Sequence record: PZ402305.1 | Source: a phage | Reading direction: 5' to 3' (one strand) | DNA length: 64,000 nt | Shown here: positions 36,223 through 62,613 of the stretch, in pieces | Position numbering within the stretch: position 1 is the stretch's first letter | How the letters are laid out: every line of letters starts with the position of its first letter | Translations under genes and position numbers: made by a program | The notes under the pieces: model-generated | Seen by the model: the letters and a program-made list of their open reading frames with translations, nothing else | The model's database searches: none | What the model was told of the DNA's origin: nothing

Positions 36223-36483
36223 TTACTCCGCAATTTGAGCCATGAGATCACGCAGTTCGGTAAAACCGCCTACGTATGTTACCTCCCCGTTCACTTCGGA
36301 CAGAATTTGTGGAAATGTGCGTGGAGGAACTCCGGTAAGATCAACAACTGTTTTAGTCATTGATTCTAAATCATAGTCTTGATCAAGACTTAAATATTCA
36401 AACTGTTTATTGCGCATGGTTAATAGTTGTTTTGACATTTCACAAAATTGACAGTTAGGTTTACCAAAAATTACAAATTCCAT
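36223..36483 (-). CDS. glutaredoxin/thioredoxin-like protein
   Basis: 86 aa with CQFC redox motif; directly precedes rml and nrd genes. Confidence 0.6.
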   Translation of the reverse strand: MEFVIFGKPNCQFCEMSKQLLTMRNKQFEYLSLDQDYDLESMTKTVVDLTGVPPRTFPQILSEVNGEVTYVGGFTELRDLMAQIAE

Positions 36484-37325
36484 TACCTCTCCTTATTAAG
36501 TAATACTGCTAAAGACTGTTCAATACCTTTATTTAAATCTGATTTTGTAAGATAGTGACTGGTTACTAGTTGTGACTTCACCGGACGTGCTGCTGGAGCA
36601 TTATAGGTTGAAGCTGATACCGCCGATATCTTAACAGGTTCTGGCATCTGTGTCAAGATCTTTTCCGCAAACTCCGCCCAAGAAATAAGATGGCTTCCTG
36701 CAAAATGGTAAGTCTTAACAGACCTTGACCAACCTGTTTTTAATACTTCAAAAATAGCTTCTGCTAAATCTGGAGCATATGTTGGACAAGAGAACTGATC
36801 AGCAACAATAATAAAATCACGTTGTCCATCATTATAGCGAGACAACATGGTTTTTAGAAAGTTATTTCCAAATTCGCTATATACCGAGGCTGTTCGAATA
36901 ATATATGCATTTGGGTTAACTCCTCGCACCATTTTTTCACCAAGTTCTTTCGTATACCCATAATTGTTTATTGGGTTAGGTGTAGTATCTTCAAAAATAG
37001 GATGAGAATAATTAAAAATATAGTCTGTAGAAATATGCACAAAATCAATTTTAAGTTTGCTGCACACTGCCGCAATATTTGCAGGTCCATACGCATTAAC
37101 AGCCAAAGCAGTAGCAAAATCATGTTCTGCTTTATCTACAGCCGTATAAGCGGCGCAATTAATAACACCATCTACATAATCTTCAATAATAGCGTTTCGC
37201 ACAGCTTCAAAATTTGTAATATCTACACGTTCTTTAGGATAAATTAAAGATACATTTGAAGGAGCCACTTTACGTAAAGCTTGTCCCAGTTGTCCATTAC
37301 CGCCCAATACCAGATATGTTAGCAT
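36483..37325 (-). CDS. rmlD: dTDP-4-dehydrorhamnose reductase
   Basis: N-terminal VLGGNGQLG Rossmann motif; last gene of the rml set. Confidence 0.75.
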   Translation of the reverse strand: MLTYLVLGGNGQLGQALRKVAPSNVSLIYPKERVDITNFEAVRNAIIEDYVDGVINCAAYTAVDKAEHDFATALAVNAYGPANIAAVCSKLKIDFVHISTDYIFNYSHPIFEDTTPNPINNYGYTKELGEKMVRGVNPNAYIIRTASVYSEFGNNFLKTMLSRYNDGQRDFIIVADQFSCPTYAPDLAEAIFEVLKTGWSRSVKTYHFAGSHLISWAEFAEKILTQMPEPVKISAVSASTYNAPAARPVKSQLVTSHYLTKSDLNKGIEQSLAVLLNKER

Positions 37326-37885
37326 ACACCCTCGCTACGTAACTGTTGAAAAGATTTAGCCATTGCATCTTTTGTTGATAGAATAGGTTTAAAACCTTCG
37401 TCAAAAATCATATCGAAGCCCCAATCGATCCCTATATCAGGATCATCCCAACGTAAACTTTGTTCACTAGAAGGGTCGTATGGAGTTGTGCATTTGTATT
37501 CAAAGATAGCATCCATACTCAAAACTATAAAACCATGAGCCAAACCAGGCGGAAGCCAAAACTGCGTATGGTGTCGTGCACGAAGAACAACACCGTCCCA
37601 AGCACCGTAAGTTGGACTATCTTTACGTAAATCTACAGCGAAATCCAATACTTCCCCACTTACACAACGAACTAGCTTACCTTGCGGGTTATTTGTTTGA
37701 AAGTGCATTCCTCGCAAAACACCGAAGTTTGATTTAGACATGTTATCTTGAACGAAAGTTTGTCTACCAATAATATCTTCGTATTTTTGTTCATTATATG
37801 TTTCTAGAAAGAAACCACGATCATCTTTATAAACGTCTGGTTTGATAATTACCGCACCTTCAATTTTTGTTTTTTCTACTTTCAT
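37319..37885 (-). CDS. rmlC: dTDP-4-dehydrorhamnose 3,5-epimerase
   Basis: [14 protein letters not shown], cupin-like; ATGA overlap with rmlA stop. Confidence 0.8.
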
Positions 37886-38760
37886 TTTCTCTCCGCTAAT
37901 TTGAGTAGGTATTGCCCGTACTCTGTTTTCTTCAGTGAGTTTCCATGATACACCAAAGTCTCTAAAGAAATCCACCCTTTTTTGAAAGCAATTTCTTCCA
38001 GGCACGCAATCTTCAATCCTTGACAGTTCTCAATAGTCTGCACGAATTGACCAGCTTCCATCAGACTGGCGTGTGTTCCTGTGTCAAGCCAAGTAAATCC
38101 TCGTCCGAGAACTTCCACTTGTAACTTCCTGTCTTCTAGGTAGCTGCGATTGATATCAGTGATCTCCAGTTCTCCACGCGCGGAAGGGGTTACTTCTAAT
38201 GCACGTTGAATAACAGAGTTATCATAGAAATACAAACCTGTGACAGCATAATCTGATTTAGGATTTTCAGGTTTCTCTTCAATAGAAATAGCTTGACGAT
38301 TACTCCCAAATTCAACCACACCGAATCGTTCAGGATCTTTCACCAAATACCCGAAAATACAAGCTCCGCCCCAAACATCTACCATCTCACTGGCGTTAAT
38401 CAGTAGTTTACCAAAGCTTTGTCCGAAGAATAGGTTGTCACCTAAAATAAGAGCAACAGAGTCTTCTCCGATAAAATCTTTACCTATGATGAAAGCTTCC
38501 GCAAGACCTCGTGGCTCGGATTGGATTGCGTAAGTGAGTTTTATCCCAAACATAGATCCATCTCCGAGAAGATACTCAAAGTCTTCCTGATCGCCTGGTG
38601 TGGTGATTATTAAAATATCCTTAATGTCAGCCAACATCAATACCGATAAAGGGTAGTAGATCATGGGTTTGTCATACACAGGGAGTAATTGCTTGCTCAC
38701 ACTGCGTGTTACTGGATGAAGGCGGGTTCCACTTCCTCCCGCCAAAATAATACCTTTCAT
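37882..38760 (-). CDS. rmlA: glucose-1-phosphate thymidylyltransferase
   Basis: [18 protein letters not shown]...[16 protein letters not shown]. Confidence 0.9.
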
Positions 38761-38768
38761 AACCCTCC

Positions 38769-39761
38769 TTAAATTTTCTCACTCCACCATTGAGGGTTGT
38801 TTAAGTACCATTCAATCGTTGAGTAGAGATCTTGTTCAAATGTAGAGTTTGCACTCCAACCCAGTTCAGACTCTATTTTAGAAGGATTGATTTCATAACG
38901 CAAGTCATGTCCTTTACGATCTTCAACAAAAGTTATCAAGTTGGAAGAAGGGTAGGTTCCTGCCTCTGGATGTACAGCATCCATGTAGTCACAAACCATA
39001 TAGATGATCTCCATATTGGTTTTGGGATTACGTGTTCCAACATTATACGTTTGACCTGGTTCTCCACCTGTTGCCACTTGAAGAATAGCTCGCGCATGAT
39101 CCTCAACAAAAAGCCAGTCTCGCACCTGATCGCCTTTACCATACACCGGAATCTCTTTATTCGTCAAGATACTTGTGATGATTTTTGGGATCAGCTTTTC
39201 TGGATGTTGATAAGGCCCAAAGTTATTGGAGCAGTTGGTTATCACAACAGGCAAATCGTAGGTACGGTGCCAAGCTTTCACAAGATGGTCAGATGCTGCC
39301 TTAGACGCGCTGTACGGGCTTGAAGGGGCATAAGCTGTCTCTTCAGTAAAGGGAACGCCAGAGTCTGCCATATCGCCGTACACTTCGTCTGTGGAGACGT
39401 GTACGAACATCTTCAGTTTATTTTTTGGGAGGAGCCTTGCAGCTTCCAATAAATTGTATGTACCAATAATATTGGAGTCGATGAAAACTCGTGGATTCTT
39501 GATAGAATTATCCACATGACTTTCTGCCGCTAAGTGAATGATGAAGTCAGGATTGCACTCTACTACTAAACTTTTGACCTGGGTTTCGTTTGCCAAATCT
39601 GTTATGCTTAGTTTAACGTGAGTGATATCGCCTACATTCTCAATGTCTGCTGCATAGCCCATCTTATCAACGACAAAAACTTCGTTATTGGGATCTTGAC
39701 AAAGAGAGCGCACCACGGCACTCCCAATAAAACCAAGACCACCTGTTACCAGATAGCGCAT
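38769..39761 (-). CDS. rmlB: dTDP-glucose 4,6-dehydratase
   Basis: [15 protein letters not shown] and SDR YxxxK-type core; 330 aa. Confidence 0.9.
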
Positions 39762-40601: not shown

Positions 40602-41687
40602 TTAGAAGTCAAGCTCCTCATCATCAGAGAGATCTTTGTTAGCTGAATTCAATTTGTAATTAGTTAACTGAATCTCTTGGGCTGCTGACTGAATCAAATC
40701 AGGATTCAACCATTTTTCCATCCAAGCTAAAGGACTATGTTTAGGTGCTTTAAACTTGGCTTTCATTTTCAATCGACGATAAATAGGAGCAGCATTGAAA
40801 TAAACCCACTGTTTAGACAATTCGGCGTTAAGACCTACAATAAAACGACCTTCACTAAACAGGTAGTCACACCACTGTTCCTCTTGTTCAACAACAGTGT
40901 CGAGGATCAAAGTCAACTCTTCAATATTATCTTCGTAAATTTTACGCCAAATTGGGTCATGCATCAATGCATCAATTACAGCATAGTCCATCTTAACATG
41001 CAAGATTTCATCTAGCATAATTTTCTGGATCAGTTTACAAGCCCCAACAAACAGTTGTTGTTCTGCCATAGCAAAAGTAGCAGAGAAGGAAGATATAAAC
41101 TGAATACCTTCTAATCCAATCAGGGCTACCATCCCTTTAAGAATCAGCAAGCGAAGTTCATCGTTAGCTTCAATCAATCCTAGAGCATACTTATGACCAG
41201 CTTCTTCCAACTGACCCATGATATCAGCAATGATACCCATACGATTGAAAATTTTATCATTAATCATAATCTGATTGATGACTTCAATTGGATCTGGAGT
41301 ACATTGGCGGATTATTTCAGAATACGTTAACGCATGGAGAACTTCCATTTCACTCTGCTTCATCATCATAGCACAGGCTTCATTGTTACTCAAGAATGGA
41401 GAGAACAAAGTGATGATTGATTTTGCAAGAGAATCATTTTCCCATTGGAACGATAAGTTTTTAATCATAACATCATAGTTGTTTTTAGAACAAGCTACGA
41501 AATCTTTACGTGTCTGATCCAGATTAACTTCGTTTTCATCCCAATCTTGTGCTTTTTGAAGTTTGTAGAGTTTGTGCATTTCTGGATAAGTTACGTTAAC
41601 AGAATCAAAGATCCCTAATTGCTCCCCCAAAAATACTGGATATTTTCCTGTTTTGTAAACTTCATTGTGTAAATTAATTGCTGCCAT
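40602..41687 (-). CDS. nrdB: ribonucleotide reductase small subunit (class Ia beta)
   Basis: 361 aa; di-iron ligand-type E..H motifs; C-terminal ...DDEELDF tail. Confidence 0.85.
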   Translation of the reverse strand: MAAINLHNEVYKTGKYPVFLGEQLGIFDSVNVTYPEMHKLYKLQKAQDWDENEVNLDQTRKDFVACSKNNYDVMIKNLSFQWENDSLAKSIITLFSPFLSNNEACAMMMKQSEMEVLHALTYSEIIRQCTPDPIEVINQIMINDKIFNRMGIIADIMGQLEEAGHKYALGLIEANDELRLLILKGMVALIGLEGIQFISSFSATFAMAEQQLFVGACKLIQKIMLDEILHVKMDYAVIDALMHDPIWRKIYEDNIEELTLILDTVVEQEEQWCDYLFSEGRFIVGLNAELSKQWVYFNAAPIYRRLKMKAKFKAPKHSPLAWMEKWLNPDLIQSAAQEIQLTNYKLNSANKDLSDDEELDF

Positions 41688-41731: not shown

Positions 41732-43972
41732 TCACATCTTGCAAGCTTCACAACCACCATCAGAATCTTCTTGTGCTAAAGAATCTGCTGATTTTGTTCT
41801 ACTGTTAAGGTAATACAATGACTTACCACCCAGTCTAGCAAAGTTCAAAATAAATTTCATCTCTTCTTTAACTGATAAACGTCCCCCTACCAATTTAGAA
41901 TAATCTAACCAAGAATCACAAGAAATTCCTTGGTCCGTAAACTTGGTAAAGATACCATACATTTCTGCAAGATCTTTAGCCGGAGTATCCCATGCAGACT
42001 GGTAAAACATTTTCAGTTTTTCGTAGTCTGGAACAATAAATAATACACTACCTTTCTGACTTTGTTTATACATAATAGTATCACGAACAGGATACAGAGA
42101 GTTAGTAGTATTGCTTACCAAACTGCTGGACTCATTAGGTGCAATAGCAGCCAAGACACTGTTACGGATACCACCTTGTTCAATGATTTCAGCACGTAAG
42201 CCTTCCCAATCCATTTTAAGATCAAAATTACCGATACTATCTACTGTTTTAGCATAAGTGTCAATTGGTAGCCAACCTTGAGGCCATTTGGTCTTATCGA
42301 TCCATTCCGCATTACCTTTTTCCTTAGCCAGACGCAGAGAGGCTTTTGCCAACCAAAAGTAATGACGTTCTGCAAGTTCATGCATTAATTTTTTAGCATA
42401 AGCATCTGAATAATTTACAAAATTACTTGCCAAATAATGCGCTAAGTTTGTAATGCCTACACCAATAGATCTACGTGCTTTAGCAGTTATTTCGTTATGT
42501 TTAAATGGATAATCCATTGTTTCAATAACGTTGTCAATTGTCAATACAGTGTAGTATGCAACATCCTCATATTCTTCAGGTAAGACACGACCAGCAACAA
42601 TAGAAGATAAGAAGCATAAAGCCAATTCTTGATCTTCTGTGTTCTCACCAGTAAAGAGATCCGGCATACTGTGGAAAGCTTTAGTTGGTAAGAAGATCTC
42701 TTGACACAGGTTTGATTGATACACCGTATCCAGGAAAGGTGTATGGTTGTTAACGTTGTCAGCAAAGAACATGTAAATACGTCCTGTTTCTGCACGTTGA
42801 ACAATAATCTCTGTCAGAAGATCACGAGCCTTAACAAATTTTTTCTTAATGCGACGACGGCTTACTTTGTCATAAACTGCATCAAACTCTTCTTCACTTT
42901 TATACAAAGCTTCATAAAGTTCTGGAGCATCATCACAACTAACTAACATCCAATCTTCGTTTTTTGCTGCTCGACGCAAGAACGAACGGTTAACAACAAT
43001 AGAATAATCCAGTTTGTCTACTCGTTTATCTATAGGTGTTGTTGGATTCTTCAGTCGAATCAGATCGTCGAAGTCTGGTTCAAGTATGGTAAAGGTAACT
43101 GTAGCACTACCTCCACGGCTTGCTTGCTTCGAAGCTCCAACACTATCTTCCATCCATTTCAGATATGGAAGAAGACCACCATGAATAATACGATTATTCT
43201 TAACACCTTGACCTGTGGCGCGAGTTTGAAGATTAACACCAATACCTGCGTTATTCAACGTATACTCATGAGCTAAGTAATTAGCAATGGCTAAAGACTC
43301 TGCCGTATCGTCTGCACGGAACAAACAACAAGACGCACTTCCTTTGATTGGAGTTCGTAGAGTTGTCAGATACGGCGATGGCAGATTAATCTTAAGATCG
43401 CTAACATAAGTATAAAGTTTTTTAATATCTTCTATACGGCGTTCTTTTGGTTGGATCTCCATAACCTTCATTGCGATACCAATAAAAAGAAACTGTGGAG
43501 ACTCATGCACCACATCGTTTACTGCATCTCGAATAAGATATTTATCTACCATCTGACGTAAAACAGAATAACCATAAGTTAGATTTTTATTATGCTTTAC
43601 AATCTTACCGATTTCTTTGATCTCTTCATCAGTATAATCCATTTTAGCCCAATGTCCACGTTCTACCATATCATGATAAAAGGTATTCAGTGAAGGGATA
43701 CTGTGGTATCCCCCATGAGCCTGTTTGTAAATCATACCCAGAAGAAGTCTTCCTGCCATATCACTGTAAGCTTGTGTTTTCTTGTCAATACACGCTGCAA
43801 TCATTGCTTTATGCAGATCACGTGTAGACACACCGTCATAACACCGCTTCACAGCTTCTAATTCAATTTCAGACCAGTTTAGTTTACCTGCTGCAAATTC
43901 AGACCACTTGCGAAGTTTTTCTGGATTAAACTCCTCTGTCTTACCGTTAGATTTAGTTACAAAACGAATCAA
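41732..43972 (-). CDS. nrdA: ribonucleotide reductase large subunit (class Ia alpha)
   Basis: 746 aa; N-terminal ATP-cone, SNLCQEI active-site motif, C-terminal Cys pair. Confidence 0.9.
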   Translation of the reverse strand: MIRFVTKSNGKTEEFNPEKLRKWSEFAAGKLNWSEIELEAVKRCYDGVSTRDLHKAMIAACIDKKTQAYSDMAGRLLLGMIYKQAHGGYHSIPSLNTFYHDMVERGHWAKMDYTDEEIKEIGKIVKHNKNLTYGYSVLRQMVDKYLIRDAVNDVVHESPQFLFIGIAMKVMEIQPKERRIEDIKKLYTYVSDLKINLPSPYLTTLRTPIKGSASCCLFRADDTAESLAIANYLAHEYTLNNAGIGVNLQTRATGQGVKNNRIIHGGLLPYLKWMEDSVGASKQASRGGSATVTFTILEPDFDDLIRLKNPTTPIDKRVDKLDYSIVVNRSFLRRAAKNEDWMLVSCDDAPELYEALYKSEEEFDAVYDKVSRRRIKKKFVKARDLLTEIIVQRAETGRIYMFFADNVNNHTPFLDTVYQSNLCQEIFLPTKAFHSMPDLFTGENTEDQELALCFLSSIVAGRVLPEEYEDVAYYTVLTIDNVIETMDYPFKHNEITAKARRSIGVGITNLAHYLASNFVNYSDAYAKKLMHELAERHYFWLAKASLRLAKEKGNAEWIDKTKWPQGWLPIDTYAKTVDSIGNFDLKMDWEGLRAEIIEQGGIRNSVLAAIAPNESSSLVSNTTNSLYPVRDTIMYKQSQKGSVLFIVPDYEKLKMFYQSAWDTPAKDLAEMYGIFTKFTDQGISCDSWLDYSKLVGGRLSVKEEMKFILNFARLGGKSLYYLNSRTKSADSLAQEDSDGGCEACKM

Positions 43973-44239
43973 CTTCTCCTCCCTATTATTAATGCATATT
44001 CAAAACATCTACATCATAACCGAACTTCATTTCATTAAAAAGTCCATTAGCATATAGAAAACCTTCAAAATGAGTTATGTCATCAAACCCTTTTGCTTTT
44101 GCTCGGCGGTCTGCTTCTTGTCTTTTAGGAGATAAACGTTTTGAAGTGTCTAGAATTACAGTTACATTACAACCAACAGTTTCATCAAAATAGACTTCGA
44201 TTTCACAGCCTTCATATTTATTATCAGTCATTGTCCCTC

Positions 44240-44683
44240 TCATTGATTAGTATCATCTGCTTTCGCAGGATCATAAGAGTTACCGAAATCATCCATCTTA
44301 ATATGTGACGCACCCCAACCTGTAAATTCTTCATCACCAAAATGAAAAATATCATTTTCTTGATAGATTCGTTTAAAACCACAATTAGGTGAAACAGGGA
44401 AAGTGAAAAGCGTTGTATTTGCAAACACTACTCGCTTATCGTTATTGCTTCTGATATTCACATTACGCTCAACAGAATAGTGTGAATCTTCAGCCATACC
44501 CAGCATTACAAGCGACGCTCTAATAACAGCATTTTGTTTCTCGTGTGGGATATTGCCATTGTGTTTATTTGATTCTAGTTTCCAGATAGGGGTAGACATT
44601 ACAGTAGACATGCTTACGGTAGCCCAAGTTGTAGTATTTACTAATGACATATTTTCTCCTTCGTTTTGAATGGGAGGACTCAC
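44240..44683 (-). CDS. hypothetical protein (147 aa)
   Basis: Track ORF between nrdA and ThyX-like gene. Confidence 0.4.
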   Translation of the reverse strand: MSPPIQNEGENMSLVNTTTWATVSMSTVMSTPIWKLESNKHNGNIPHEKQNAVIRASLVMLGMAEDSHYSVERNVNIRSNNDKRVVFANTTLFTFPVSPNCGFKRIYQENDIFHFGDEEFTGWGASHIKMDDFGNSYDPAKADDTNQ

Positions 44684-44748: not shown

Positions 44749-45747
44749 TCACCATTTAGTATGATTTGTTAAAAGTTGACGATGTTGAATCCAGCCTTTG
44801 AAATTACCAGACCAAAACTTACCATTACGATCTACATGGGTAATACCTGGTTCCCAAGAGTTAAAATCCCAAGGAGCATTGATAAACAAATCTTCAAAAC
44901 AGTTCTCTCCGTATTGTTCGCATGTTTCTTGAATTGGAGTGGCTTGATGTTCAAACGGAGAAGCATGAACCTTGCGCCCAGTCAGCAAGCGACCATAGAT
45001 ATCTAAAGCTTTATCTTTAGTTGCATTTAAACGACGATAGCTAACCTGTGCACAACACGAAGCTGAAATAGCTTTGGCTTCTTCCAAAGTAAGCACAACA
45101 ACTTCTCCAGATTCATCTTGAACGTAGTATCCACCAAAAACAAAATGATCGTCACCTTCTGTGCCAATAGTATCATAGAAATGGTCTACATAAGGTGTGT
45201 GCCATTGCCCTGGTTTCAGCACTTCTGGTGTAGATCCTTCATACTCTTTGTGCATCTCTTTAGCCAAAGCTTCGATAGTAGGATCGGCTTCTTTGTCATC
45301 ACGTAGCCACCAGAAATTTTCATATTCTGTTGCTGTCAGAACTGTTTTAATTCGTTGGAAAGGTTCCAGAAGACGGTTTGCAACTTGTTTGTGGTACCCT
45401 GCCAAAGAGAATTCTTCTGCAAAACGTGCTGCACTAAGCGCGGCAAGATCCCACCACTCTTGAGCAGTATAACCTGCATCAATAAGAGCGTCATGATCAA
45501 CACCTTTATCCTGCATACCAGGTTGGTTAGCCCCAAAACGATAAGGACGAGCAGGTTGATTTCGCACCATTTCAATCAGTGTTTTAACAGGTATAGCACG
45601 GCTAGAAGCAGCATTACGACTAAACAGGCGGTGAGTCATCAATTCTGAATGAATAATACGTGGATATTCTAGTTCAAAAGTTACAATCTCTTTTCCGTCT
45701 TCAGTGATGGAATGCGCAATAATACTAGCCGAAATCTGTTTTGTCAT
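44749..45747 (-). CDS. ThyX-like protein (flavin-dependent thymidylate synthase family, variant motif)
   Basis: THRLFSRNAASSR fits RHR-x7-S-x-R with R to T; HASPFEH motif near C-terminus; 332 aa is longer than typical ThyX. Confidence 0.5.
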   Translation of the reverse strand: MTKQISASIIAHSITEDGKEIVTFELEYPRIIHSELMTHRLFSRNAASSRAIPVKTLIEMVRNQPARPYRFGANQPGMQDKGVDHDALIDAGYTAQEWWDLAALSAARFAEEFSLAGYHKQVANRLLEPFQRIKTVLTATEYENFWWLRDDKEADPTIEALAKEMHKEYEGSTPEVLKPGQWHTPYVDHFYDTIGTEGDDHFVFGGYYVQDESGEVVVLTLEEAKAISASCCAQVSYRRLNATKDKALDIYGRLLTGRKVHASPFEHQATPIQETCEQYGENCFEDLFINAPWDFNSWEPGITHVDRNGKFWSGNFKGWIQHRQLLTNHTKW

Positions 45748-45756
45748 TTTTTCTCC

Positions 45757-46365
45757 TTAGTTTTTAAAATTGTTCAAAGTGTTAAAAACATCCAAACATG
45801 TTAGCCACTGATCTTCTAAACCTGTGATCACAACATTTGGTTTTTTCTTTAGTTCTTCTAGATGGTTATCTTTATAAGGCGTATTAAAATATATTTTAAC
45901 CACTTCATCTGGAAAATATAGTAGGTTATCAGCCCTGTCATCTATTGCTATATCACAAGGCAATAAGTATTTTTCTTTCGTAGCAAAAAAGCCGTTACCA
46001 GATCCTTTGCTAAAATCAATCGTATCTAACGTTCTTAAAACATGCTTATGTTTAGAACTTAAGTGACCACCTTTTGTCACACTTGCGATCAAAAGATTGC
46101 TACCTTTCCTTGAAACATACTTTAAGAAATCTGGCATACCTGGAACAAAACCCATTGTATCATAGAGATGAGGATTATCCAGAAATCCGTAAGGATCTAT
46201 ATTAAACTCCTCCCTGAAACCAGGAAAGTAGTTGGTAAGATCATAGTCTGCATTTTTTGTGAATGTGTCTATCTTAACACCAAGTCCACTAATCTTATTC
46301 AACCATTCTAACCAAGCAACATCTAATGGAGCCACAACTAAATCCCAATCACATACTATCTGCAT
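45757..46365 (-). CDS. HAD-superfamily phosphatase, possible 5'-deoxynucleotidase
   Basis: CDWDLVV (DxD), IASVTKG, DDRADN resemble HAD motifs I, II and IV. Confidence 0.4.
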   Translation of the reverse strand: MQIVCDWDLVVAPLDVAWLEWLNKISGLGVKIDTFTKNADYDLTNYFPGFREEFNIDPYGFLDNPHLYDTMGFVPGMPDFLKYVSRKGSNLLIASVTKGGHLSSKHKHVLRTLDTIDFSKGSGNGFFATKEKYLLPCDIAIDDRADNLLYFPDEVVKIYFNTPYKDNHLEELKKKPNVVITGLEDQWLTCLDVFNTLNNFKN

Positions 46366-46401: not shown

Positions 46402-46977
46402 CTAACTTTCAATTTCCTGCAATAGGATTTTGACTATTTGTTTACGGCGTTTTGCTACTGTGCTTTCAGGTTCTATTTTACGCTTCTTCAGCCACGCTTT
46501 ATCTTTCTTAGCTCTACACAAAGCTATCGCTTCTTTTTCAGCTTTTGCTTCTTCAAAAGATATGCCTTGCTTGTCTGCATAAGCAAGAATAGAGTTGCAC
46601 AATTTACAAACCATTCGCAAATCTTCTTCTTTCACATAGATCAAACGGAAAACAAAAAGGGGAATATCCTCAAAACATTGAAGTTGTTTTGCTGCGTGAA
46701 TATGATCCACTTGGAAGTCTTTCATTCCTCCTCTGTGTCCACATATTTCGCACTCACAATTCCAAACTTGTTTTGGTTTTCCAGTTTTCTTGTCTATCAT
46801 CACATTGCCGTCTTTATCTACACGATCAACTTTAAAACGCCTTGCATTGATAACCTTAATTTTATTAGGGTGTCTCATCCATGCTTTTCTAAAACATCCC
46901 CTAAGATAAGTATAAAATTCAGCTTGTGTTTTCCAGGGTGTTCCTTCACCCCACATTATTTTTGGTTCACCTGCCAA
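46402..46977 (-). CDS. HNH endonuclease (free-standing)
   Basis: CECEICGH...DHIH. Confidence 0.7.
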   Translation of the reverse strand: MAGEPKIMWGEGTPWKTQAEFYTYLRGCFRKAWMRHPNKIKVINARRFKVDRVDKDGNVMIDKKTGKPKQVWNCECEICGHRGGMKDFQVDHIHAAKQLQCFEDIPLFVFRLIYVKEEDLRMVCKLCNSILAYADKQGISFEEAKAEKEAIALCRAKKDKAWLKKRKIEPESTVAKRRKQIVKILLQEIES

Positions 46978-51233: not shown

Positions 51234-51959
51234 TTACTTGTTAATAATACCTGCAATATTAGGTTTGACAAAGGTCGATGGTTTCATGATCTTACCTTTA
51301 TCATCAAAGAACACATACACTTTCTGTTTTTCATTATAAACAGCATGAACACCAGTGTATGCCCCTTCTGGACGATTGGCATTTCGTTCTTCAATTGCAG
51401 CGCATTCTTGTGCAATGGCTGAATCGATATCCGAAGTTTTCCAAGTTTTCAGCAACTGTTGTTTAGTTGGATACTTGGAATCATTACTTTTCAATACCTC
51501 TTTAATAACTTTCTTTTCTGGATATTTTGAACGGATTAGAGTGTCACGAGACATACGCATAATACCAGCAGCCATTAGTGCCATTTGAACTGGCTCTGTA
51601 AATGTTTGTTCCAAAGCATCAAAATCAGTATACACAGTTGGAGTAAAAACATCGCCTACAGCATAGTCCAAGAAATTCATCGTATGTTCTTCACCAAAGA
51701 ACATGTAAGTAAGATAACTGGATACTACAAAAATATCCGCTGCTGCATCCAAGAGTTCTACATGATCGTTTACTTTCGCGGCTGTTTCATACTCTTTAAG
51801 CTCTTCACGAACGAACCCGATTTGGGACATAAATAGCTCTTGAGTGAATTCAGGTTGTTCACCACCTCGTGCTTTGGCATTCCAATCAATTACGTGCTTT
51901 GCTGCATTTTTGAAAAATTCAGTATCGAATTTAATATCTTTAAAAAAATTCTCGATCAT
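51234..51959 (-). CDS. MazG-like nucleoside triphosphate pyrophosphohydrolase (putative)
   Basis: REELKEYE...(12 aa)...ELLD fits the ExxE-x12-ExxD signature. Confidence 0.45.
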   Translation of the reverse strand: MIENFFKDIKFDTEFFKNAAKHVIDWNAKARGGEQPEFTQELFMSQIGFVREELKEYETAAKVNDHVELLDAAADIFVVSSYLTYMFFGEEHTMNFLDYAVGDVFTPTVYTDFDALEQTFTEPVQMALMAAGIMRMSRDTLIRSKYPEKKVIKEVLKSNDSKYPTKQQLLKTWKTSDIDSAIAQECAAIEERNANRPEGAYTGVHAVYNEKQKVYVFFDDKGKIMKPSTFVKPNIAGIINK

Positions 51960-60574: not shown

Positions 60575-60646
60575 TGGCCCTGTAGCTCAATGGGAGAGCT
60601 GTCGGCTCATAACCGATAGGTAGCTGGATCGAAACCAGCCAGGGCC
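60575..60646 (+). tRNA. tRNA with CAT anticodon, tRNA-Ile2 (lysidine)-like
   Basis: Acceptor GGCCCTG/CAGGGCC, loop CTCATAA, encoded CCA; resembles bacterial tRNA-Ile2. Confidence 0.7.
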
Positions 60647-60651
60647 ACCAA

Positions 60652-60723
60652 CGTCTTTATGGTGTAATGGATAGCACAGGAGTCTTCTAAACTCTTAGTC
60701 AAGGTTCGATTCCTTGTAAAGAC
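60652..60723 (+). tRNA. tRNA-Arg (TCT)
   Basis: Acceptor GTCTTTA/TAAAGAC, loop CTTCTAA, T-loop TTCGATT, CCA. Confidence 0.7.
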
Positions 60724-60775
60724 ACCAGAACATTTTAACATGAATTAGCTCAAGTGATTTGAACCCACTACTGAT

Positions 60776-60896
60776 CATGGTGGCAGAGAATGAGGCAAGT
60801 ATGTCAGACATTATAAACAAAGGCCACGGTTATATTAGAAGACATAAATGCTCGAAGAGCACCGTTCGTGGAGAACGGGGGTTGGTGGAGTCACCA
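60776..60896 (+). ncRNA. second candidate structured RNA (about 120 nt)
   Basis: ATGGTGGC at about 60776 pairs with GTCACCAT at about 60889; track ORF 60759..60950 here is probably spurious. Confidence 0.3.
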
Positions 60897-60961
60897 TTCA
60901 TGGTAAAATGTTTTAAAAAACTATTGACAACAAACCTTATTTTATGTTAGATTATAAGTAT

Positions 60962-61049
60962 GGAAGGGCAAATCGACGTGGCGACGAAAACGGTCTTGAA
61001 AACCGCCGAGCTTGAAAGAGCCTTGGGAGTTCGACTCTCCCTCCTTCCG
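60962..61049 (+). tRNA. tRNA-Ser (TGA), type II
   Basis: Acceptor GGAAGGG/TCCTTCC, loop CTTGAAA, long variable arm, T-arm GGGAG-TTCGACT-CTCCC, G73, CCA. Confidence 0.7.
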
Positions 61050-61056
61050 CCAGATT

Positions 61057-61139
61057 GGTAGATTGGTGAAATGGTAGCCACGACAGTTTGCTAAACTGTA
61101 GTCGGAAACGGCGTGTAGGTTCGAGTCCTACATCTACCG
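61057..61139 (+). tRNA. tRNA-Ser (GCT), type II
   Basis: Acceptor GGTAGAT/ATCTACC, loop TTGCTAA, long variable arm, G73, CCA. Confidence 0.75.
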
Positions 61140-61273
61140 CCAAGTTCTTTTTAATATAGCTTACTTTAATAGAGTAAACTTTCGGCAGATGGCCCCCCAC
61201 CATCTTACCGATAACTCATAGTTAGTGGTGTGAACACTGGCTATCTTAAAAAGAATTTAAATATTAGTATTTA

Positions 61274-61358
61274 GGTGAGTTAATTCCGTAGGGGTAGCGG
61301 GGCAGACTGTAAATCTGTTATCATTGCGATTCGGGTGGTTCGACTCCATCACTCACCA
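61274..61358 (+). tRNA. tRNA-Tyr (GTA), type II
   Basis: GGTGAGT...GCAGACTGTAAATCTGT...ACTCACCACCA; close to the bacterial tRNA-Tyr pattern. Confidence 0.8.
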
Positions 61359-61367
61359 CCAAATTAA

Positions 61368-61450
61368 GATGAGTTGGCTGAATGGTTTAAGCGGCGGACT
61401 GTTAATCCGTGTTCGAAAGAACGATATAGGTTCAAATCCTATACTCATCG
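61368..61450 (+). tRNA. type II (Ser-like, G73) tRNA whose canonical fold gives anticodon GTT (Asn)
   Basis: Acceptor GATGAGT/ACTCATC, 3-bp D-stem, loop CTGTTAA between GCGGA/TCCGT, GNRA-capped variable arm. Confidence 0.45.
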
Positions 61451-61532
61451 CCAGAATTATGGACTTGTAGAGTTAAGGTAAACCCCCAGTCGCCAAGAGG
61501 CTTCTGGAATTGCAGGTATCGAATCCTGCCGA

Positions 61533-61604
61533 GTCCCAGCTTTGCTCCTATAGTATAATGGCTATTACAACGGTTTTGTAATCCGTGGATCTCTGTTCGA
61601 TTCA
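61533..61604 (+). tRNA. tRNA-Thr (TGT)
   Basis: Acceptor GCTCCTA/TGGGAGC, loop TTTGTAA, T-arm CTCTG-TTCGATT-CAGAG, CCA. Confidence 0.7.
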
Positions 61605-61931
61605 GAGTGGGAGCACCAACACAACATTAAGGGCACTGTGATTGATCGTCGTATCCTGTGCACAAGGTCTGTTCGAAAGACAGTGTTCTTAGTATTGTGT
61701 TGATCACAAAAAGAGTCACCTGAAACTTGACCGGAGTAGGGTTGGATGGGGTAAAAGAAGAAGCGGCTCTCCCATCGACAGCAACGAAGAATAATATTTG
61801 ACTTTGGTTTTGTATTATTTTAAGTTAGCTTACCGAACGTAGGGCTAGTCACCCAAAGGGATACTCGTCACTGTCCCACTCAATAAAACTATTGACAACC
61901 AATAGTAAAGTGTAGTATAGTAAAGATGTAG

Positions 61932-62002
61932 GGCGTTCTTGGTGTAGCGGTAGCATTCCGTCCTTCCAAGTCGGCGGCACGAGTTCGATCCTCGTAGAAC
62001 GC
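61932..62002 (+). tRNA. tRNA-Gly (TCC)
   Basis: Acceptor GCGTTCT/AGAACGC, loop CTTCCAA, T-arm ACGAG-TTCGATC-CTCGT; D-arm weak. Confidence 0.55.
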
Positions 62003-62103
62003 TCCAAATTATTTAATAAAGGGTTGCCAGAAAACTTTCTCTTTTACTCATGGTTTTCTCCTTCTCTCACACCTCTTCTGGTTGCCCTTCATTAAATGAT
62101 TTA

Positions 62104-62176
62104 TTGGTTTGTAGTGTAGTTAGGTAGCACACGACACTTTGACTGTCGTAGGTTTGGTTCAAATCCAGACAGACCA
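62104..62176 (+). tRNA. tRNA-Gln (TTG)
   Basis: U1:A72 and G73 (Gln identity), stem CGACA/TGTCG with loop CTTTGAC, CCA. Confidence 0.7.
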
Positions 62177-62184
62177 GCCATATA

Positions 62185-62258
62185 ACGGAATTTAGCTCAG
62201 TTTGGTAGAGTGTACGCTTTGGGAGCGTATTGTCGCAGGTTCGAATCCTGCAATTCCG
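62185..62258 (+). tRNA. tRNA-Pro (TGG)
   Basis: Acceptor CGGAATT/AATTCCG, loop TTTGGGA, T-arm GCAGG-TTCGAAT-CCTGC, A73, CCA. Confidence 0.75.
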
Positions 62259-62267
62259 ACCAATTAA

Positions 62268-62338
62268 ATGTTTCGTAGTTCAATGGTAGAACCCACGACT
62301 GATAATCGTGAGACACAAGTTCGATTCTTGTCGAAACA
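62268..62338 (+). tRNA. tRNA-Ile (GAT)
   Basis: Stem CACGA/TCGTG with loop CTGATAA; T-arm ACAAG-TTCGATT-CTTGT; CCA. Confidence 0.65.
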
Positions 62339-62419
62339 ACCAGTTTCCCGTTAGACTTACAGGATAAGAGTTCCACAGCTTATTGTGATGCTGGTTCGAA
62401 TCCAGCACGGGATACCTAA

Positions 62420-62495
62420 TAGCGGGATAGAGGAGTCTGGTCGTCCTCGCCAGTTTCATATGCTGGAGATCATTGGTTCAAATCCAATTCCCGCC
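62420..62495 (+). tRNA. tRNA-Met (CAT), initiator or elongator undetermined
   Basis: D-stem GAGG/CCTC, stem CCAGT/GCTGG with loop TTCATAT, T-arm ATTGG-TTCAAAT-CCAAT, 1:72 mismatch, CCA. Confidence 0.5.
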
Positions 62496-62613
62496 TCCAA
62501 ATATCGCTTGCCAGCGGTATCTTTGAAGACCTTGCCTGGTTCCTTCTAAGATGGAGGGGTGCGACTCCTTAACGCACAATTATAATAAAGCATTTCAAAT
62601 TAACAGTATTTAT

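Follow-up and report, generated by a model that had tools for sequence, protein, structure and literature searches.

An open reading frame (ORF) at positions 44749..45747 of a 64,000-nucleotide stretch of phage DNA (sequence record PZ402305.1; the whole stretch is called the window below) encodes a 332-residue protein that, judging from profile alignments, belongs to the superfamily of the flavin-dependent thymidylate synthase ThyX and has a circularly permuted chain. The module that canonically opens the ThyX chain apparently stands behind the core in this protein, and several active-site residues of canonical ThyX are systematically replaced. The function that best fits the retained residues and the gene neighbourhood is flavin-dependent synthesis of deoxythymidine monophosphate (dTMP), which is considered probable. 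The window itself shares over 99% identity with numerous Escherichia coli myophages of the Phapecoctavirus (phAPEC8-like) group.

The gene is complete (332 codons plus a stop), begins with ATG and lies on the minus strand, as do all other features of the window given below with coordinates, unless stated otherwise. A Shine-Dalgarno sequence, AAGGAG (45753..45758), stands 5 nt before the ATG and overlaps the TAA stop of the upstream gene. Residue numbers refer to the full 332-aa protein; the AlphaFold2 (AF2) model and the query of alignment A1 lack Met1, so their numbers are one lower. An initial annotation of this DNA, made from the letters alone, had drawn attention to an altered signature and to extra length, and the translation bears out both once the strand is corrected to minus. 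Residues 38-51 (45595..45636) read T-H-R-L-F-S-R-N-A-A-S-S-R-A, that is, T38-H-R-x7-S48-S-R50-A51 where ThyX has RHR-x7-S-x-RY. The strict signature R-H-R-x7-S-x-R-Y is absent, with T38 for the first Arg and A51 for the Tyr. Solved ThyX chains have 216-270 residues, and the window protein is about 100 residues longer.

Profile searches assign the protein to ThyX with sound statistics: Pfam Thy1 (PF02511) matches with 33.3 bits, above its gathering cut-off of 24.8 (E 5.4e-8), and phrog_85, 'thymidylate synthase', matches with E 1e-107. The Pfam match covers only profile positions 59-190 of 191, and the TIGR02170 match positions 60-207, both falling on residues 22-176. No similarity in fold or sequence to ThyA-type thymidylate synthases or pyrimidine hydroxymethylases was found. 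A single-sequence phmmer search of the PDB returned no ThyX match, whereas family-profile HMMER did reach T. maritima TM0449, and neither search found a solved structure nearer to the protein than canonical ThyX.

Chain order of the ThyX-like protein

Canonical ThyX proteins (PF02511, TIGR02170), such as T. maritima TM0449 (1O26), PBCV-1 A674R (4FZB) and the M. tuberculosis enzyme (2AF6), are collinear, whereas the window protein appears to be permuted, with a breakpoint after canonical residue ~60. The resemblance of its C-terminal region, ...ISASCCAQVSYRR...DIYGRLLTGRKVHASPFEHQ, to the N terminus of T. maritima ThyX, ...LSAVRAARVSFD...HLIEYLMKHGHETPFEHI, can be recognized by eye. BLASTP against TM0449 (the sequence used is identical to PDB 1kq4) gives a second, non-collinear high-scoring segment pair that joins model-numbered residues 226-266 to TM0449 21-59. 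When the sequence is re-ordered and spliced, the Pfam match grows from profile positions 59-190 to 14-190 (33.3 to 38.4 bits) and the TIGRFAM match from 60-207 to 17-207 (31.1 to 38.1 bits, still under the equivalog cut-off of 87.9).

Profile-profile comparison with hhalign, run against an alignment (A2) of 35 canonical ThyX proteins, gives the same picture. Family residues 21-174 align with ThyX 61-199 (E 1.3e-6), and the C-terminal part alone independently aligns through residues 227-268 with ThyX 21-60 (E 2.4e-7). The re-ordered family profile is collinear with ThyX 20-199 (E 3.2e-12, probability 97.6%). A single-copy ThyX profile meets the native family in two separate non-collinear matches (E 4e-6 each), whereas a tandem-duplicated ThyX profile aligns collinearly with native residues 21-268 across the junction, over 195 columns (E 8.5e-10), along a path through residues 61-220 of the first copy and 1-60 of the second. 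The family-profile HMMER search likewise matched PDB TM0449 in three domains of rotated order.

The rotation extends through the family. A hidden Markov model (HMM) of the canonical N-terminal segment matches 241 of 270 family proteins; every significant match falls behind the core, with a median position of 0.70 of the protein length and none earlier than 0.50. For the core HMM the median start is 0.09, and where the core starts later, the protein bears an intein or the match is partial. The collinear order, with the N-terminal module before the signature core, was therefore not found, since the module follows the core.

The structure prediction is consistent with this arrangement. The whole chain, modelled as a monomer, forms one compact domain (pLDDT 94.5, pTM 0.92) with the three-dimensional fold of ThyX. 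With the same predictor, canonical ThyX has the secondary-structure order E,E,H,H,H | E,H,E,H,H,H,E,H,H, and the family model has E | E,H,E,H,(E),H,H,E,H,H | (E),E,E,H,H,H | tail. In the models, then, the elements appear to be equal, and a beta-beta-alpha-alpha-alpha module is shifted from the front to behind the core.

In terms of the chain, residues 1-20 (45688..45747) are a family-specific N-terminal beta-strand that has no canonical counterpart and lies outside all canonical ThyX alignments; DSSP places a strand at model residues 5-13. The ThyX core follows at residues 21-175 (45223..45687), equivalent to T. maritima 61-199. It is interrupted by a family-specific insertion, residues 64-93 (45469..45558), which faces a gap in the hhalign alignment with canonical ThyX and carries an N-Q-x-G-M-Q motif, and near its end hhalign pairs N144-F-W-W-L-R149 (45301..45318) with T. 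maritima N169...R174, the latter being the uracil-binding Arg. A linker without a confident canonical counterpart, residues 176-200 (45148..45222), bears the motif G-E/Q-W-H-x-P-Y, which includes H183-x-P185. The relocated N-terminal module, residues 201-268 (44944..45147), corresponds to T. maritima ~1-60 according to hhalign, HMMER and secondary-structure order; it is made up of beta-beta-alpha-alpha-short helix and contains H261-A-S-P-F-E-H267 (44947..44967), which aligns with the flavin/folate-site motif H53-E-T-P-F-E-H59. The chain closes with a family-specific tail, residues 269-332 (44752..44943), which carries a W-S-G-N-F-x-G-W-I-Q-x-R motif. No Pfam or NCBIfam model matches this tail, and it is absent or different in some shorter family members.

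The canonical-equivalent residues, 21-175 and 201-268, add up to ~223, a normal ThyX length. The surplus of ~108 residues consists of segments 1-20, 176-200 and 269-332, and the loop insertion 64-93, with invariant motifs of its own, sits additionally within the core. Invariant residues occur in all four of these family-specific segments. The initial annotation was thus right to see a divergent, overlong relative of ThyX, and what it missed was the cause: a relocated N-terminal module and three family-specific additions, with no foreign domain. The permutation would also explain why the equivalog model rejects the protein and why the Pfam match covers just two-thirds of the domain.

Unusual length by itself might suggest an artefact, such as two fused genes, a frameshift or a wrongly placed start codon. 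Next to no credence can be given to this idea and it is rejected, because the full-length architecture is conserved (993 of the 1,035 phage records with a family gene cover at least 80% of the query, and representatives of 300-345 aa number in the hundreds among the family clusters), a strong ribosome-binding site (RBS) precedes the ATG, and the AF2 model folds the entire chain as a single confident domain. The longer homologs are accounted for by inteins (see below).

The chain would accordingly begin with canonical strand beta-3, pass through the signature helix and loop and run along the helical core to the R174-equivalent Arg; the two strands, two helices and H-x-S/T-P-F-E-H motif that canonically form the N-terminal module would come after it. 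The permuted gene probably arose when a ThyX gene was duplicated in tandem and then lost the N-terminal module of the first copy and the core of the second.

Active-site residues and inteins

Conservation was counted in 80 diverse family members, and equivalences to T. maritima ThyX (Tm) follow the hhalign register. Judged in this way, about two-thirds of the known ligand contacts seem to be kept and a specific set lost. Seven retained residues are invariant (80/80): H39 (Tm H79), R50 (R90), R125 (R147), N144 (N169), R149 (R174), S236 (S30) and H261 (H53). S48 (S88) and H267 (H59) are found in 79 of the 80, S263 (T55) in 78, N45 (N85) and E266 (E58) in 76 each, and R40 (R80) in 62. The ligand contacts kept thus include Tm H53 and the C-terminal uracil-binding Arg, Tm R174. 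A His of the H53 type and an Arg of the R174 type are reportedly both part of the 'extended ThyX motif' of Ulmer and co-workers (2008).

The replaced residues are equally regular. Tm Y91 is A51 in all 80 members, R165 is T140 in 79, R78 is T38 in 76, Q75 is E35 in 73, and R74 is S34 in the window protein and Ser or Ala across the family (71/80). Thr for the first signature Arg and Ala for the Tyr are therefore hallmarks of the family and not mutations of this phage. Canonical ThyX has the first RHR Arg, the signature Tyr, R165 and R74 at positions where the family has Thr, Ala, Thr and Ser/Ala. Canonical ThyX is a homotetramer in which each active site draws on three subunits. In solved ThyX structures, the RHR residues bind the phosphates and ribityl of flavin adenine dinucleotide (FAD), with the first Arg also hydrogen-bonded to the isoalloxazine and to deoxyuridine monophosphate (dUMP), and the signature Tyr forms a lid over the reacting atoms (PMC6514825; PMC3498832). 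A second subunit contributes to FAD binding through a Ser (at Tm T55) and an Arg (at Tm R165; R190 of the M. tuberculosis enzyme, Mtb), the latter at the FAD phosphates; dUMP is held by residues of a third subunit, namely the Arg at Mtb R87 / Tm R74, S88 and R90 (PMC6514825; PMC3498832).

The family has also gained invariant or nearly invariant residues of its own, and some of them may plausibly fill the vacated active-site positions. They are G77-M78 in the core insertion (both 80/80), K120, H183-x-P185 in the linker (H183 and P185 both 80/80), R238 (75/80) and R323 (80/80), the last accompanied in the tail by N315 (76/80) and Q321 (78/80). In the proposed mechanism, the missing side chains (R74 to S/A, R78 to T, Y91 to A, R165 to T) are presumably replaced in space by K120, H183, R238 and R323.

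Family members of ~520-680 aa were considered as possible tandem duplications, and this was rejected: they are intein-containing precursors with HNH or LAGLIDADG endonuclease domains. Exact junctions define four insertion sites, all abutting invariant residues or motifs. One lies between H33 and S34, one inside the signature (after R40, or between S48 and S49), one two residues after R149, and one directly after H261 of the relocated HASPFEH motif, the last in at least six representatives. The intein-bearing homologs are P0129, P0135, P0143, P0150, P0156, P0171, P0203, P0208, P0212, P0217, P0222, P0223, P0233, P0250, P0251 and P0265; the copy in the window has no intein. Inteins characteristically occupy the conserved catalytic motifs of replication and nucleotide-metabolism enzymes. 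Their presence directly after H261 indicates that functional constraint on the relocated module equals that on the signature.

These data bear on the idea that the protein is a catalytically dead or moonlighting relic of ThyX, for example a nucleotide- or flavin-binding regulator of a complex for the synthesis of deoxynucleoside triphosphates (dNTPs) that is kept for a structural role. The protein fails both the strict ThyX signature and the equivalog cut-off, and several canonical Arg and Tyr residues are gone, as such a relic would have it. Against this, about 25 invariant or near-invariant positions, clustered in known ligand-binding motifs, persist among members sharing just 38-52% identity with the query. 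Four ligand-binding motifs have been invaded by inteins, which typically occupy the active sites of working enzymes, and a very large family (1,611 clusters at E<1e-30; 1,035 phage records) is kept in lytic phages with compact genomes. A relic is accordingly rated very improbable.

Distribution and genomic neighbourhood

The permuted family is very large, is routinely labelled thymidylate synthase and is no oddity of the source phage. It was found by tblastn in 1,035 of 50,697 deposited phage records (~2%), with carriers among rV5-like phages, ICP1, Pakpunavirus- and VCM-type Pseudomonas phages, N4-type phages and phiCbK-like phages. HMMER over 1.84 billion cluster representatives (clusters at 50% identity) recovered 4,980 clusters at E<1e-3, including the 1,611 at E<1e-30. 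N4 gp30 and ICP1 gp193, both from model phages, belong to the family; over the full length, the N4-type protein is 41% and ICP1 gp193 53% identical to the window protein, and nothing sets the latter apart from this PHROG 85 / N4 gp30 / ICP1 gp193 family. N4 gp30, a member cited in roseophage papers, is listed as a putative thymidylate synthase (PMC2784036).

The family and its label were thus already known, and the permutation and altered catalytic set are without description in the searchable literature. There, proteins of the N4 gp30 / ICP1 gp193 type are handled as ordinary ThyX, with neither the permutation nor the altered active-site residues described, and searches that paired ThyX with circular permutation returned only uses of the term for genome permutation or statistics.

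Two side observations concern related records. Other long viral ThyX-like proteins in BFVD (for example A0A191VYH8, 508 aa; M4PRP2, 331 aa; crAss-like and Gordonia phage ThyX, 300-370 aa) align with the model over only ~155-200 columns, and these partial alignments suggest that viruses hold further, different ThyX architectures. Separately, records such as OP562383 ('Acinetobacter phage'), MG065650 ('Campylobacter phage B15') and MH252123 ('Klebsiella phage ZCKP1') are ~99% identical here to E. coli Phapecoctavirus phages, and the host labels in some of these GenBank records look doubtful.

In the window, the gene stands in a same-strand series that runs from a gene for an NT5C-like protein of the HAD type through the ThyX-like gene, two small ORFs, nrdA, nrdB and further small ORFs to rmlB, rmlA, rmlC, rmlD and a glutaredoxin gene. 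The class I ribonucleotide reductase genes nrdA (41732-43972; Pfam Ribonuc_red_lgC, E 2e-97) and nrdB (40602-41687; Ribonuc_red_sm, E 6e-33) are identified also from the annotation of a 99%-identical relative. The two small ORFs (84 and 147 aa; 43989-44683) between the ThyX-like gene and nrdA match phrog_15807 and phrog_15711 and have no Pfam match.

The same association recurs in four unrelated phage lineages. The family gene lies one gene from nrdB and nrdA in Pseudomonas phage K8 (Pakpunavirus), directly after a deoxynucleoside monophosphate (dNMP) kinase gene and ~1 kb before nrdA in Caulobacter phage Magneto, ~1 kb after a dCTP deaminase gene in an N4-type phage, and, as gp193, ~3 kb before nrdA in ICP1. 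Among N4-like roseophages, four genera have thyX, and these also have dCMP deaminase (PMC11934525). The closest complete relative, phage ukendt (99% identical), has, by annotation and tblastn, no ThyA, dihydrofolate reductase (DHFR; FolA), dUTPase (Dut) or canonical ThyX. Association with dNTP-synthesis genes is thus seen in the window and the four lineages, and absence of ThyA and DHFR in ukendt; the neighbouring ribonucleotide reductase, dCTP deaminase and dNMP kinase genes, together with this absence, point to a role in the conversion of dUMP to dTMP.

Other genes of the region are listed here for completeness. The 202-aa NT5C-like protein, a presumed 5'-deoxynucleotidase encoded directly upstream (45757-46365; phrog_420), matches NT5C weakly (26.1 bits; cut-off 24.8), and the stop codon of its gene lies within the overlap with the RBS of the ThyX-like gene. 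The protein was rejected as a conserved partner, because it is no neighbour of the family gene in the four other phage lineages checked. The rmlB, rmlA, rmlC and rmlD genes, followed by the glutaredoxin gene (36223-39761), make up a complete dTDP-L-rhamnose pathway in a lytic phage; a 99%-identical relative has four consecutive glycosyltransferase genes beside a primase/helicase gene (L004 3546-6690). A free-standing HNH endonuclease gene (46402-46977; phrog_1985) lies inside the nucleotide-metabolism/replication block, and a MazG-like nucleotide pyrophosphohydrolase, another enzyme that acts on the dNTP pool, is encoded upstream in the same strand block (51234-51959; Pfam PRA-PH, phrog_671). 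Ten tRNA genes (Met, Arg(tct), Ser(gct), Asn, Thr(tgt), Gly(tcc), Gln(ttg), Pro(tgg), Ile(gat) and Met) occupy 60576-62499 on the plus strand. Outside the region that corresponds to the window, the relative NC_052661 encodes an anaerobic ribonucleotide reductase (NrdD/NrdG), along with a Sir2-family protein and another ORF labelled 'ribonucleotide reductase' (L002 9781-13524; L005 6566-7366), and the NrdD/NrdG pair implies that this phage carries both aerobic and anaerobic dNTP supply.

Function and significance

On the reading judged probable above, the enzyme would bind FAD and would most likely use dUMP, methylenetetrahydrofolate (CH2-H4folate) and NAD(P)H to form dTMP, as the retained residues and the gene context suggest. 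The flavin would be held by H39/R40, N144 and S263/E266/H267, and dUMP by S48/R50, R125 and R149. Flavin N5 would pass the methylene of CH2-H4folate on to C5 of dUMP, and its subsequent reduction, with NAD(P)H as the reductant, would give dTMP and H4folate. During infection, the enzyme would supply thymidylate jointly with the adjacent ribonucleotide reductase, and no DHFR would be needed.

Several points weigh against this assignment. Four residues that contact FAD or dUMP (the first RHR Arg, the Tyr lid and the equivalents of R165 and R74) are systematically replaced. With 31.1 bits, the protein is far under the TIGR02170 equivalog cut-off of 87.9. The spatial equivalence of the relocated module is deduced from sequence profiles and the order of secondary-structure elements. 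The literature searches turned up no family member that had been tested biochemically or genetically. Finally, E. coli has its own ThyA, and the ThyX-like gene therefore need not be essential.

The first of these points is also the sole ground that keeps alive a repurposed enzyme, as the initial annotation had proposed in suggesting a paralog turned to pyrimidine modification in keeping with methyltransferase and rml genes nearby. A ThyX-derived flavoenzyme of altered chemistry or substrate might be a dUMP/dCMP hydroxymethylase or methylase that supplies phage DNA with a modified pyrimidine, or a UMP/dUMP methylase like PolB. This is judged unlikely, because the same replacements occur in N4-, Pakpunavirus-, ICP1-, rV5- and phiCbK-type phages, beside genes that supply dUMP or dNTPs. 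The gene is not a paralog, because tblastn detects no other candidate for a thymidylate synthase in the genome of ukendt. Modification likewise finds no support in the context, with NrdA/NrdB adjacent in the window and ribonucleotide reductase, dCTP deaminase or dNMP kinase as neighbours in unrelated phages. The methyltransferase and rml genes are ~12 kb and ~5 kb away, respectively, and neither is a conserved neighbour in other lineages, so that the proposed link is rejected.

Two further comparisons bear on altered chemistry. In the BASEL study, Vequintavirinae and relatives were exceptionally susceptible to restriction-modification systems, seemingly without effective protection; the group includes the phAPEC8 cluster, though it is unclear whether Phapecoctavirus itself was among the phages tested (PMC8594841). 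Such susceptibility speaks against a protective hypermodification of pyrimidines. PolB, the polyoxin UMP/dUMP C5-methylase and a ThyX paralog (PDB 4P5A), is collinear with ThyX and encoded in an antibiotic biosynthesis cluster. The window protein matches PolB more weakly than it matches true ThyX enzymes, and the window holds no nucleoside-antibiotic gene cluster.

Given the four replaced residues, an altered substrate or product is conceivable, with a small share of the probability. The corresponding proposal for the whole clade (N4 gp30, ICP1 gp193 and the rV5-, phAPEC8- and Pakpunavirus-type proteins) is that it forms a mechanistically distinct flavin-dependent pyrimidine C5-transferase, and it too is regarded as doubtful. 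Loss of the bridging Arg, the Tyr lid and two further Arg, with gain of three invariant motifs, would in that case reflect one of three options: a rebuilt site (with fewer subunits per site, for example), use of another form of flavin, or a change of substrate or product. All three are entertained tentatively, and dTMP synthesis by a permuted ThyX-like enzyme remains the preferred reading.

For the biology of the source phage, such a function would be ordinary, amounting to a DHFR-independent dTMP supply of its own beside the ribonucleotide reductase. The finding is worthwhile for annotation and for ThyX enzymology. Family members are labelled ordinary ThyX even though equivalog models reject them and Pfam covers two-thirds of the domain. 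ThyX attracts study both as a target for antibiotics and because its methylene relay through flavin N5 is chemically unusual. Because the fold is apparently kept, yet the order is rotated and ligand-binding residues (the first Arg, the Tyr lid and two further Arg) are absent, the clade may serve as a natural experiment on which ThyX residues catalysis truly requires.

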